DNA from: a virus
DNA: 49,831 nucleotides
UHGV virus genome: UHGV-0044336
Reading direction: 5' to 3' (one strand)
Made by a program: the position numbers. Of this stretch, positions 24,001-30,000 are shown piece after piece. How positions within the stretch are numbered: position 1 is the stretch's first letter; each line of letters begins with the position of its first letter.

Positions 24001-27000
24001 GCCCTATGCGAATATAGTGCCGCCGCTGCCTGATGTGTGGATACCGTTTAACGATTCACTGGATATGATTGCGGGTTTTTCTCCGGGCTATAAAAAAATA
24101 GCTATTGGTGACGATGTGGTTCAGGTCGCCAGTGATAAACAGGTTAATTTCAGTCGCGCATCAACGGCAACATATACCAACAAATCTGGCGAACTGAAAA
24201 CGGCGGAAATTAATGAGCCGCGATTTGAGTGTGATGGCCTGCTTATTGAGGGACAAAGAACGAACTACATGCTCAATTCGGAAAGTCCAGCCAGCTGGGG
24301 GAAGTCATCAAACATGGATGTGCCCGAAACCGGGACAGATAGTTTTGGTTTTACTTATGGAAAGTTTGTCTGCAACGATTCTCTGGTTGGGCAAACTTCG
24401 GCTATTAATATGGCATCAATTGCTGCAACAAAGTCAGTTGATGTCTCAGGCGATAACAAGTACGTGACAACCTCATGCCGTTTTAAAACAGAACGACAGG
24501 TAAGGTTACGTATACGGTTTGATAAGTATGATGGTAGTGCAACAACTTTTCTTGGCGATGCGTACATTGATACGCAAACGCTTGAAATTAATATGACAGG
24601 TGGGGCTGCCGGCAGAATTACGGCACGAGTCAGGAAGGATAAGACCACAGGCTGGATTTTTGCAGAGGCAACGATTCAGGCAATTGATGGTGAGTTAAAA
24701 ATAGGCTCTCAGATACAGTATTCTCCTGAGCGGGGTGGGGCAACAGTATCTGGTGACTATATTTATCTTGCCACCCCACAAGTAGAGAATGGGCCGTGTG
24801 TATCATCATTTATTATTTCAGGAGGCAGCGCAACGACAAGAGCCAGTGATTTGGTTAGTATCCCCACCAGAAATAATCTTTATAAGTTACCATTTACTTT
24901 TTTACTTGAGATTCATAAAAACTGGGATATTGCACCAAACGCCGCACCCCGCGTGTGGGATATAGCAGCAGCCAATACCGGGCAATCAGCAATTGCAGCA
25001 ATCAACAGAGGTAGTGGTAAGTTATATATGAGTCTGTCAAACCCTTCAGGCTTGTATGTTAATAGCGCAGCGACAGATGTATTTGCAGAGAAAACCACAT
25101 TTGGATGTATTGCAAAAGCTGATGGTCACTTTCATGTGGTGACAAATGGTAAAGCGGTTAATGAAGTTTATTGTGAATATAATGGTGTGACCGCTGATAA
25201 AAATATCCGATTTGGAGGGCAGACGAATACTGGAGAACGACATCTGTTTGGCCATATTCGCAATTTCCGCATATGGCATAAAGAATTAAATGACAGGCAA
25301 TTAAAAGAGGTCGTATGAAAGATTTAACTTTGAAGTTTCATGACAAACTGCAGTTTAAGGCCTTCCTGTCATCTCTTGACTGGGAGGAGGATGAAGACCT
25401 CCAGAATAAACTGTTAGTCGATGAAATTGGTTTCACCTACACAGAAACAGGGGTAACAGAAGAGGGAGAACCTGTCTGTGTCCGGAATGACGGTTATTTT
25501 GTCAACATTCGCATTCTTGATGACTTGTTTGATGTTTCTGTATTCTCTGATTATGTCGTGGAGCTGGAAACACCGCTTCGGGAATGGAGCTGAAAGGAGG
25601 AAATAATGGATATAAGCCCCTTACTTCATGCGCTTTGTGCTGTGGCTGCGCAGATACTGGTTGGTCTTTTTACCGGAAACTGGGCTTACGGAGCGATAGC
25701 CGGTTGTACGTTCTTCATTGCGCGTGAACATACCCAGGCAGAATATCGCTGGATTGAAATGTTCGGGCATGGCAAGCGAATGAATATGCCGTGGTGGGGC
25801 GGTTTTGATCCGCGAGCTTGGGATGTGGCAAGCCTGATGGATTTTGCTGTGCCGGTGGTGGCGTGTCTGCTGGTCTGGCTGTTGGTTAATCGTGGGTGAA
25901 AAAAGGTGAGCTGTATATGCAACGGAGGAAGAAACCCCGTTGCTGGAAGCCAGGAAAAAGTATCGGGTGTTGCTGTCCTCGGATGTTGTGCTAATTGGGT
26001 GATAACAGATCCTGTGTATGGGAGTTTCCCTTTTTGCGTGCGTTGATGCTGGTAACGGCAAACGTCATGATGAACAAAACCGCGAATAAGACGACAATCG
26101 TCGGAGCTGGTGCGCTGTCGATAAAAAAGGACAACCAGACACCAGTCATTGACACTATTACCGATATGCCAGTCGCCAGTAGGAGCGCAATATGAAAGCG
26201 TTGTGTCAGGAGTACCGCAATGGCGCCAGGCGCAATGAGCAGAGAAATGGAGAGAATGATACCTACCGCTTTCAGCGTCGCCACAATGGTCAGAGAGACC
26301 ATGCACAGCAGCCCATAATGCAGCCATCTCGTATGCAAACCGCTTACCTGCGCCTGTTGATAATCAAAGCTGAACAGCAAAAAATCCCGCCATTTTACGC
26401 TAATAACAAGTGTAACCAGCCCGGCAATAATCATCGTCTGGATTATATCGCCGATGGTTATCCCGAGCATGTCGCCGAAAAGAATATGGTCAAGATGTAC
26501 GTCTGGTTTGACTGCAATATACAAGATCAGACCTGCGGCAAACATGCCAGAAAAAACAATCCCCATCACTGTATCTTGCTTGATTCGGCTGTTGTCTTTC
26601 AGGTATCCCGTCGCCACCGCGCAGAATACTCCGGCGACGAATGCCCCTGTAGCCAAAGGTAACCCCAGAATCCAGGCAAGCACGATTCCAGGAAAAACCG
26701 CATGACTCATCGCGTCACCCATCAGTGCCCAACCTTTCAGGACCAGAAAGACCGACAGCAGCGCACAGGGTATGGAAACTACCAGTGAAATCAGCAGTGC
26801 GTGACTCATAAAGGTGAACTGCAGTGGCTCCAGTAATAATGCCATCATGAGCGATCCTCCAGCGCCTTATGCGCACGCCGACGATTTGCCAAAAGCCCAT
26901 GGGTGGGCGCAAAGACAAATGCTAAAAGAAACAGCAGTGTCTGCGCCACCACGATGATTCCACCTGTCGCGCCGTCCAGAAAGTAACTGACCCACGCGCC

Positions 27001-30000
27001 GAGGAAACTAGTTACACTGCCAATAGTTACAGCAATCATGAGCAGGCGGGGAAAACGATCGGTTAACAACCATGCTGTTGCACCGGGAGTCACCACCAGA
27101 CAGATCACCAGAAAGGCACCAACCGTTTGCAGCGCCGCAACGGTCGAAACCGACAGCAGGGTGAAGAAGATGAGTTTTAATCTGCCCGGATGCAATCCAA
27201 TAGCACGGGCGTGATTCTCGTCGAAAAAGGTCACCATAAGATCTTTCCATTTGAAAAAAAGCACGATGATCGAGAGAATGCCAATGATAGTGAGTTGCAG
27301 GATATCCGCCGGATCGATTGCCAGAATATTGCCCAGGACGATGGTCTGAATGTTCACAGATGTCGGGTTCAATGACACCATAAACAGCCCCAGGCCAAAA
27401 AAGGACGAGAAGATCAGACCGATGATGGCATCTTCTTTTAAGCGGGTGCGTTGGTTAAGAAACAGCATGCTGCCCGCAGCCAGTCCGCCGGAAAAGAAGG
27501 CTCCCAGAGAAAACGGAAGCCCCAGCATATATGCCCCCGCAACACCCGGGACAATAGAGTGCGACAACGCATCGCCAATCAGCGACCAGCCTTTTAGCAT
27601 CAGATAGCATGACAGGAAAGCGCAGAGACCGCCGACCATCGCCGAGACCCACATCGCATTGAGCATATATTCATAGCTGAAGGGTTCCAGTAGCACGTTC
27701 ATCTTTCTTCCCTCTGCACCGCTGACGGTCGATGAGCCACAAAAGGGCGTTCATCGTCAGTAATAATGCTTTCTTCCGAGCCGTTAAGTGTGACATGGCG
27801 CAGTACGCCGCTAAAAGCCAGCTCTAGGTTCTCGGCTGTAAAAGTGGTGTCTGTCGGCCCGCTTGCCAGGACGGTGCCTTTGACCATGACCGTATAATCG
27901 CAAAATGTCGTGACGGATCCGAGATTGTGTGTTGAGACAAGCATCGTTTTGCCTTCCGCGCGTAACTCCCTCAACAGGCTGATGATTTTGGCTTCGGTTT
28001 TCACATCAACGCCAGTAAAAGGTTCATCCAGCAGGATCACATCACCCTGCTGTGCAATCGCTCTCGCCAGAAAGACGCGTTTCTTTTGTCCACCGGAAAG
28101 CTCGCCGATTTGTCGATGGCGAAAATTCACCATATCGACACGTTCCAGCGCATCGGTGACAATTTGACGATCCCTCTTTTTGGCGATACGCAACATACCC
28201 ATATGCCCATAGCGGCCCATCATCACCACATCTTCCACCAGTACAGGAAATGACCAGTCAACATCTTCTGACTGAGGGACGTAGGCAACCAGGTTTTTCT
28301 GTAACGCCTGTCGCGTGGGAATACCCAGAACAGATATCTTTCCGCTGGTCAGACGCACAAATCCCATAATCGCTTTAAACAACGTCGATTTTCCGGAACC
28401 GTTTACCCCAACCAGAGCGGCAATAGATCCACTTGGTACTGTGAAGGATGCATCGCGCAGTGCTGTGTGCCCGTTACGCCAGGTGACAGTAACATCATTA
28501 ACGACAATGCCTGCAGATTGCATCATTATTTCTCCCTTTTCCCAGCTTTAATTCCCTGTACCAGCGTACTGGTAGTAACCTTAAGAAGGTCGATATACGT
28601 CGGTACCGGGCCGTTTTCTGTGCTCAGGGAATCGACATAGAGCACACCGCCGTAGTGTGCGCCGGTTTCACGCGCAACCTGACGCGCTGGTTTATCGGAA
28701 ATCGTACTCTCGCTAAAGACTGCCGGGATATGATTTTTCTTAACTATATCAACAACCTTACGTACCTGCTGCGGTGTTCCTTGTTGATCGGCATTAATCG
28801 GCCACAGATAAAGCTCTTTTAGCCCCAAATCGCGTGCGAGATAAGAAAAAGCCCCTTCACTGGTGACCATCCATCGCTGATTCTCAGGGAGTTCCGTAAT
28901 CTGCTTACGCAGGGGGGCAAGGGTTTGGGTAATCTTGGCTTTATAAGTATCGGCATTGCGTTGGTAGGTTTGTGCATTTGCCGGATCGTATTTTATCAAC
29001 GCATCACGAATATTATCGACGTAAATCAGAGCATTATCTGGCGACATCCATGCATGGGGGTTAGGTTTGCCCTCATAGGGTCCTTCGGTGATCCCTACAG
29101 GCGTCACACCCGAAGAGACAATTACTTCTGGAACCCCATTGAGATGCTGGTAAAAGCGTTGGAACCACAATTCCAGATTCATACCATTGGCGAGAATCAG
29201 TTGTGCCCCCTGCGCACGTTTAATATCGCCAGGGGTAGGCTGATACTCATGAATTTCTGCACCAGGCTTGGTTATGGATGAGACTTCTGCAGCATCTCCC
29301 GCCACGTTTTTGGCCATATCCGCGATGATGGTAAATGTTGTAATGACCTTGAATTTTTCAGTTGCACTTGCCTGAAATGCGATCGAGCAGGTGAGTGCGA
29401 GGCCCCCCAAGAGCATGGTTACTTTTTTTATCGAGTGCATAATTTAGTACCTATAGTGAGCAAAATTAGAACAAACATAGCAACGGCTATGTTTTATAGC
29501 ACAACCTATACAAAATGAAAATGATTATCATTAGCGGTTTTGAGGCCCAAAACAGGGATTAGGTTGTTTCCGGCTGGCGACGCGTTATTGAGGAAAAAAG
29601 TAAGGCAGCTAGTAGGCTTTGAAATAACGTTTTGCGGTTGGCTGATGCAATTTCGAGAGTGCATGTATTGAATGATTTCTAGCCGTTACTGATTTTCGTA
29701 TTTTTTGTATGGGAGGATTTGCACCTCTCCCCACCGAGCCTCCATGACTTTACTCCACTGTCTCTAGGGCTGCTGTGTGCCAGGAGCGGAAGCAGGGGGG
29801 CCAGAGACTCCTTAAAAGTTGATAGCTCGTTTTGCAGGGAGACTTACACGGTAAGCGTTATTCCGAAGAGCTTAAAATTGAAGCAGTCAAACGGGTTGTT
29901 GAGCGTGTTTATGCGCTGCCATCTGATTAATCGACGGAAGCAGTTCCGTTTGGTCTATGATGCAGTTGTCCGGCAGGCGCTCTGTGACGCAAAAGAACGA

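Follow-up and report, generated by a model that had tools for sequence, protein, structure and literature searches.

The window analysed here is the whole 49,831-nucleotide (nt) stretch of UHGV virus genome UHGV-0044336, one strand of a viral genome that carries a four-gene operon, sitABCD, predicted to encode a manganese/iron importer of the ATP-binding cassette (ABC) type. We consider it very probable that sitABCD is a 'moron' or accessory cargo, borne on the non-essential arm of a temperate lambdoid phage of the phage 21/ev017 type that integrates into icd, and that it forms a self-contained promoter-plus-operon unit repressed by the Fur and MntR proteins of the host and expressed in the lysogen. 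Gene integrity, protein family, phage location, the empty site, the operator sequences with their conservation, and prevalence were examined directly; expression in lysogens and control of the Salmonella operon by Fur and MntR were taken from published work.

In the open reading frame (ORF) listing, sitABCD appears as four intact minus-strand ORFs that fill positions 25991-29440 without gaps, in the order binding protein, ATPase, permease, permease. sitA (28526-29440; 304 amino acids, aa) encodes a periplasmic Mn/Fe-binding protein with a signal peptide ending in ...FQASA, sitB (27699-28526; 275 aa) the ABC ATPase, and sitC (26845-27702) and sitD (25991-26848) inner-membrane permeases of 285 aa each. 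Adjacent genes overlap by 1 base (sitA/sitB), 4 bases (sitB/sitC) and 4 bases (sitC/sitD), which is the usual sign of translational coupling. Each product has a full-length Pfam match, to ZnuA (288 bits), ABC_tran, ABC-3 (278 bits) and ABC-3 (258 bits), respectively. No internal stop was present in any of the four frames, and the lengths equal those of the RefSeq SitA-D annotations. SitB, the translation of which holds a Walker motif, the signature LSGGQ and the Walker B sequence ILLDEP, passed the NCBIfam equivalog PRK15056/NF011630 'manganese/iron ABC transporter ATP-binding protein' with 592.8 bits against a cut-off of 393, aligned over positions 1-274 of the 274-position model. An earlier note on this DNA had described a complete four-gene metal transporter beginning at 25991; the whole ORFs, the full-length domains and the SitB equivalog bear this description out, and 25991 proved to be the sitD stop codon.

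In NCBIfam, SitA, SitC and SitD scored above no family cut-off and matched only related Mn/Zn models below threshold, so that the family assignment of these three proteins is based on Pfam, on the SitB equivalog and on an alignment with Yersinia pestis YfeA (5uxs). SitA aligned with YfeA over residues 24-297 (E 4e-125; about 70% identity, judged by eye), and YfeA H76, H141, E207 and D282, which we take to be the metal ligands of YfeA, are conserved in SitA as H64, H129, E195 and D270. Among cluster A-I binding proteins, Mn/Fe binders are recognised by a His-His-Glu-Asp set, and Zn binders by three histidines. These points bear on whether the operon might encode a ZnuABC- or AztABC-type importer of zinc. 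The Pfam family is indeed named ZnuA, SitC and SitD score with the AztB and ZnuB models, and SitA scores with AztC. However, all matches to zinc families in NCBIfam stayed below cut-off while SitB passed the Mn/Fe equivalog, the nearest solved relatives (YfeA and the cyanobacterial MntC) are Mn/Fe binders, SitA has the His-His-Glu-Asp set and no His-rich loop, and the promoter has MntR and Fur boxes, not a Zur box. We therefore regard a zinc importer as extremely improbable. The phage SitABCD would be expected to transport Mn2+ and/or Fe2+. Such transport is reported for the Salmonella, Shigella and avian pathogenic Escherichia coli (APEC) orthologues in passages of a 2020 review (PMC7545054) that cite earlier work.

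The operon lies within a phage genome. Each half of the window matched Escherichia phages ev017 and PhiR57_1 at 99.9-100% identity and was also close to phage 21, and the window is a rotated copy of a lambdoid genome of about 50 kb, genus Jouyvirus, with cos near 3951. On the late side, the tail tip gene J and the side tail fibre gene (ending at 25318) are followed by two small ORFs (25315-25899) and then by sitDCBA on the minus strand, opposite to the late genes. Past sitA lie, in turn, a 256-aa ORF, a 3′ fragment of icd that includes the icd terminator, three arm-type repeats and the gene for the integrase. The order tail fibre, sit, ORF, icd fragment, int is identical in the annotations of phage 21, ev017 and PhiR57_1. 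The phage 21 record describes a sewage isolate from the 1950s. The ev017 record bears the organism name 'Escherichia phage Lambda_ev017' in an accession series shared with other 'Lambda_ev' records; we take it, unconfirmed, as part of the Mathieu 2020 collection of cultivated phages released by E. coli isolates, the main text of which does not use the name ev017. Across ev017, PhiR57_1, Perceval, phage 21 and other Jouyvirus and Bievrevirus phages, the sit region has 99.5-100% DNA identity and the same position, orientation and promoter. The operon thus sits within a temperate phage genome, in a dispensable region between the tail fibre genes and att/int, as is expected of a moron.

The sequence beyond sit contains an artificial feature. 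A run of 16 N occupies 31457-31472, with the 13-mer TGACTTCGAACGT on each side (31444-31485 in all), and the window has exactly 29 extra bases compared with ev017 at this site. It looks like an artificial join, in which the ends of a linear prophage record that had been cut at the att repeat were joined by a spacer and the record was then rotated. Otherwise, the window differs from ev017-type phages by a handful of single-nucleotide polymorphisms (SNPs); those relative to ev017 are more divergent to the left of the join than to the right.

Such a join raises the question of whether a misassembly, or a prophage with poorly drawn limits, has put chromosomal sit genes next to phage DNA. The join with its duplicated 13-mer speaks for this, as does another 'phage' record with sit, SPF_0923, which includes the chromosomal genes uspF, ompN and ydbK. 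Against it, the join lies about 2 kb beyond sitA, inside the att homology, and leaves the operon untouched, and the same gene order is found in the deposited genomes of ev017 and phage 21. An integrated copy in APEC E19019 has icd followed directly by int at attL, and at attR it remains homologous to the window across sit and the icd fragment as far as 31601, after which the chromosomal genes ymgL, ycgX and bluR begin. Wrong attachment can hardly be credited in the light of these comparisons, and sit is best read as phage cargo. The position that the earlier note gave to the operon, between the tail fibre module and attP and opposite to the late genes, agrees with the ORF map and with the order in the three related phages, and its reading of the operon as phage cargo holds, with no misassembly at sit. 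The att region beyond sit is indeed present, but the 'attP' of the window is not native sequence.

Upstream of sitA, the window contains a perfect 9+4+9 palindrome, AAACATAGC-N4-GCTATGTTT, at 29473-29494, with the spacer cgtt and 32 nt upstream of the sitA ATG. It has no mismatches and is the single match in the window even when 3 mismatches are allowed (0.01 expected by chance); read on the sit strand from 29494 to 29473, it is AAACATAGCcgttGCTATGTTT. A full-text literature search found no pairing of the palindrome sequence with the term 'MntR', and the phage palindrome was therefore compared directly with the promoter of mntH in E. coli K-12. The palindrome upstream of K-12 mntH, AAACATAGCaaagGCTATGTTT, has arms identical to those of the phage palindrome at 18 of 18 bases. 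We take the mntH palindrome to be the MntR operator, as Patzer and Hantke in 2001 and Kehres et al. in 2002 reportedly described it. The K-12 region reads ...tttGATAATCATTctcgtttggcatagcatgAAACATAGCaaagGCTATGTTTtagaggcacaagATG, with a Fur box just upstream of the palindrome and the palindrome near the start codon. The two promoters differ in that mntH drives an NRAMP proton symporter, has the spacer aaag instead of cgtt, and separates Fur box and palindrome by about 15 nt, compared with 22 nt in sit.

The Fur consensus GATAATGATAATCATTATC was matched at 17 of 19 positions (2 mismatches) on the sit strand at 29517-29535, where the predicted box reads GCTAATGATAATCATTTTC. When both strands of the window were scanned, this was the sole site within 3 mismatches (0.02 expected by chance). 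Between the box and sitA we inferred, by eye, a sigma-70 promoter on the minus strand (29493-29521), consisting of a -35 element TTTTCA (29521-29516), a 17-nt spacer and an extended -10 element TGcTATAAA with its hexamer at 29498-29493. The Fur box overlaps this -35 element, and the last part of the -10 element falls within the palindrome, as does the expected start site near 29486. The perfect MntR-type palindrome announced in the earlier note is thus matched by the arms of the mntH palindrome; the Fur-box-like sequence that it described is also present and ends at 29535, one base beyond the end coordinate of the note (29534).

This promoter layout is conserved among orthologues. In a promoter set obtained from a scan of genome contigs, which included no E. 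coli locus and in which the best match was Phytobacter (86%), about 20 orthologous Enterobacterales sit/yfe loci had an ATAGC-N4-GCTAT core 21-60 nt before the start codon. Most of them also had a Fur-like box about 25 nt above the core and 73-86 nt from the ATG, as do the copies on plasmids and in prophages at ttcA. Alpha-proteobacterial and other distant sit/yfe loci in the set had neither the core nor a Fur-like box. Salmonella enterica sitABCD in Salmonella pathogenicity island 1 and Y. pestis yfeABCD are orthologous four-gene Mn/Fe importers with the same layout, the Fur-like box lying about 25 nt above the palindrome; SitA is 74% identical to SitA of S. enterica subsp. arizonae and, by eye, about 70% identical to YfeA. 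In contrast to the phage operon, these loci are chromosomal (in a pathogenicity island or the core genome) and have less perfect operators, that of S. arizonae (TAACATAGCaaagGCTATATTC) having 3 mismatches. Eight IMG/VR viral contigs hold the exact Fur-box-to-palindrome pattern. The phage copy thus retains the ancestral layout of two operators at its most perfect.

A palindrome in a leader might instead form an RNA hairpin or attenuator, and a Fur-like box might be ordinary AT-rich promoter DNA. A terminator scan did list the palindrome as a hairpin with a T-rich tail, and matches to the Fur consensus are easily found in AT-rich DNA. Yet only 3 of the 9 stem pairs are G-C, and the full hairpin would not be transcribed because the inferred start site lies inside the palindrome. 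Moreover, the arms match the mntH palindrome at all 18 bases, orthologues keep the ATAGC-N4-GCTAT core while the flanks vary, which is the pattern expected of protein recognition, and nowhere else in the roughly 50 kb is the Fur consensus matched at 17 of 19 positions. We judge this explanation very unlikely and favour two protein-binding operators. In Rfam, neither a riboswitch nor a known RNA was found in the sit leader; apart from a match below threshold over a relic of a tail fibre assembly gene, the search gave one chance-level match to tpke11.

Given these elements, we propose that a lysogen would transcribe sit from the operon's own sigma-70 promoter, with no dependence on the late operon and in the direction opposite to it. 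As the phage brings no regulator, control would fall to the host, with MntR-Mn2+ binding the palindrome over the -10 element and start site, Fur-Fe2+ binding the Fur box over the -35 element, and the promoter being occluded. Accordingly placed operators of this kind would leave sit on only when both manganese and iron are scarce, the same dual Fe/Mn repression logic that is implied for the host mntH. Under such limitation, periplasmic SitA, the SitB ATPase and the SitC and SitD permeases would together import Mn2+ and Fe2+. Repression of Salmonella sitABCD by Fur and MntR has been cited and re-tested with a sitA-lacZ fusion (PMC8970401), and MntR and Fur would be expected to bind the predicted operators of the phage copy and make its expression metal-dependent. 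Import by SitABCD is reported, in passages of the 2020 review, to aid oxidative-stress resistance and host fitness (PMC7545054), and the lysogen would probably benefit from sit in this way. On this proposal, which supports the reading of the earlier note, a temperate phage spreads a metal-uptake fitness or virulence factor that is plugged into the metal-sensing circuits of the host.

Alternatively, sit could be a silent or decaying passenger that is intact by chance, unexpressed and of no consequence for the lysogen. The operon travels without a terminator and without a regulator, many integrated copies lie in defective prophages such as that of APEC E19019, which is disrupted by insertion sequence (IS) IS3, one genome has IS1414 inserted in sitD, and E. 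coli already has MntH and other iron systems. However, the ratio of nonsynonymous to synonymous substitution rates (dN/dS) is 0.10-0.13 for sitA-C and 0.29 for sitD relative to the plasmid allele, and 0.04-0.56 across the sit genes relative to a third lineage. For sitA, sitB and sitC it is well below 1, all frames are open in three independent lineages, and the operators are conserved; the operon is, judging from these frames and ratios, complete and under purifying selection. In addition, in a lysogen of the Perceval prophage of strain LF82, which is 99.8% identical to the window in the sit region, the sitA-D morons were transcribed 4-13x above the prophage background (Misson et al. 2023, PMC9928086). 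The cassette also outlasts the decaying phage genes in defective prophages, an argument for selection acting on the cargo. A silent passenger is thus a most improbable account, and an expressed and selected operon is preferred. In the defective prophage of APEC E19019, IS3 replaces the immunity/replication region and the side tail fibre gene is broken, while sitABCD is intact; an intact sit in a decayed prophage fits selection on the cargo.

Several observations weigh against the proposed regulation and against sit as a classical moron. Because an automatic sigma-70 scan accepts only T at the final -10 position, it made no promoter call from sitA up to the Fur box, and the promoter was assigned by eye. 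Control of sit by Fur and MntR in Salmonella and Shigella is general background that enters here through secondary citation. Furthermore, sigma-S modulates the repression by Fur and MntR in Salmonella (PMC8970401), and sit regulation may be more complex than two repressors. A terminator scan and inspection of the sequence found no canonical intrinsic terminator after sitD, where the only structure is a hairpin in a relic of the tail fibre assembly gene tfa with no adjacent T run; the sit unit is therefore without one of the three classical parts of a moron. Late transcription may run antisense through sit, and on induction Q-antiterminated late transcription might silence sit by antisense collision.

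Comparison of the different copies defined a mobile sit cassette, 25964-29628 on the minus strand, that has the same ends within a few bases in the phage, in ColV/ColBM plasmids and in a different lambdoid prophage. By local blastn, plasmid pAPEC-O1-ColBM shares window positions 25964-29625 (96.7%) and a prophage next to uspF/ompN shares 25971-29628 (97.4%). The cassette of about 3.66 kb comprises the four genes with about 185 nt upstream and 20-27 nt after the stop codon, and the patterns at both ends are repeated in IMG/VR contigs. In the sit-less phage mEp460_4F5, the match to the window stops at 25884 and resumes at 29633, and 54 unrelated bases take the place of 3.75 kb. From this alignment, the joint in mEp460_4F5 is evidently an empty site, and sit a discrete insertion that is present or absent among close relatives. 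A search of the cassette ends for terminal repeats, inverted or direct, gave only short, chance-level matches and thus nothing to suggest a transposon-like unit; the cassette also has no transposase and no terminator of its own.

The surroundings of the cassette hold remnants of phage sequence. Adjoining its sitD end is the tfa relic (25918-25975, plus strand; 58 nt), which is 94.8% identical to the 3′ end of the intact tfa gene in ON032529.1. A non-coding segment of 130 nt that follows the tail fibre genes in related phages is displaced to the sitA side (29620-29751, plus strand) and is 85% identical to positions 4839-4974 of ON032529.1, which lie between tfa and the cassette. In the sit-less phage, the core of this segment (29633-29696) comes after the final late ORF, and short microhomologies (TGCTG; AAAT[A/G]AC) occur at the cassette joints. 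Two arrangements, tfa-segment-sit and tfa relic-sit-segment, recur in IMG/VR contigs. The Rfam family IS009, a candidate intergenic small RNA of E. coli, matched 25897-25995 on the plus strand below threshold (51.7 bits against a gathering value of 117; E 7e-10); the match overlaps the tfa relic and the sitD stop codon and most likely reflects shared prophage sequence, not an RNA gene.

ON032529.1, 'Salmonella phage SPF_0923', has sit at its very end and then runs into chromosomal uspF, ompN and ydbK (region 8657-12334), and it is a prophage prediction with host flank. It shows that another lambdoid lineage, with tail fibres of a different kind, also carries sit, and from the K-12 gene order this prophage is presumably at the Rac/ttcA position. 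We entertain, as a doubtful idea, that a cassette with the same ends in three unrelated backbones (icd phages, ttcA-site prophages and ColV plasmids) was spread by a defined, undescribed phage-plasmid route. One candidate route could be recombination templated by the conserved segment downstream of the tail fibre genes, the alternative being repeated chance events.

The ColV/ColBM plasmid sit (pAPEC-O1-ColBM) is the same 3.66-kb cassette in its ends, gene order and gene lengths. It differs from the phage copy in being a distinct allele with about 97% DNA identity, flanked by IS1 and plasmid genes, not by phage genes. The plasmid promoter has 1 mismatch in the palindrome (AAACATAGT...) and 4 in the Fur box, compared with 0 and 2 in the phage allele, and the two alleles might be repressed to different degrees.

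Phage-borne sit is widespread. Whole copies of a query spanning window positions 25500-30200 were found at no less than 99% identity in at least 26 phage records. Among 5426 complete E. coli genomes, 2384 have sit, in 1683 chromosomal and 1061 plasmid places. The junction between the phage ORFs and sitD was whole in 1187 of these genomes. The junction between sitA and the ORF of unassigned function beyond it was whole in 737, and the E. coli type strain carries the sit phage junction at 100% identity. Carriage by phages explains why almost half of the complete E. coli genomes have sit.

Phage-borne sitABCD has been described before and is very common; the operon, its location in phages, its Fur box and its expression in lysogens are all in print. 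Mathieu et al. 2020 (PMC6969025) found sitABCD on 70% of infant-gut lambda phages and classed it as a moron; every one of these phages had a fur box upstream of the operon, and repression of phage sit by Fur was suggested. The term MntR is absent from the main text of that paper, which may thus leave the phage MntR box unmentioned, although its presence follows from what is known of the orthologous operons. In the genome paper of enteroaggregative E. coli (EAEC) 042, sitABCD is listed as cargo that prophage 042p3 carries at its tail end (PMC2808357). The 2020 review tabulates extraintestinal pathogenic strains, most of which are listed with a 46-56-kb pathogenicity island, 'PAI-icd', that carries the Sit system (PMC7545054). 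PAI-icd (in CFT073, 536, UTI89, S88, APEC O1, LF82 and others) and 042p3 correspond to the phage-borne sit region. Many chromosomal copies are defective prophages, as with the IS3-mediated loss in APEC E19019, whereas the window is a complete phage genome.

The attachment region follows the operon on its sitA side. The icd 3′ end with the icd terminator (31357-31600, plus strand) is homologous to the bacterial attachment site, as aligned among the window, ev017 and the attL and attR of APEC E19019, and an icd fragment is annotated in both phage 21 and ev017. Three tandem repeats of the CTTCCCCAAAA type (31616-31653, plus strand) correspond to the arm-type attP subsites P1-P3 of phage 21, which have the consensus YYTTCCCCAAAA. 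They are followed by the gene for a tyrosine integrase of 380 aa (31664-32806, minus strand), with a Pfam lambda-integrase arm-binding domain and a Phage_integrase domain; phage 21, ev017 and PhiR57_1 also have an integrase. Elsewhere, the annotation of PhiR57_1, transferred by coordinate, places a further known cargo gene, for an OmpD/NmpC-type porin, across the two ends of the window (about 49250-49831 and 1-350); the ends interrupt the gene, and about 217 bases of the circle are missing.

The 256-aa ORF between sit and att (30127-30897, plus strand) has 35% G+C and no assigned function; it matched phrog_20520 ('unknown function') with 590 bits. Neither this ORF nor the two small ORFs by sit gave a usable match in PADLOC, Pfam or NCBIfam, and their PHROGs matches are of 'unknown function'. 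Phages and prophages that carry sit also conserve the 256-aa ORF, which may be a further cargo gene. The same transfer of coordinates from PhiR57_1 places other known cargo genes at about 2078-2371 and 2798-3178, namely bor and a partial tonB-like gene.

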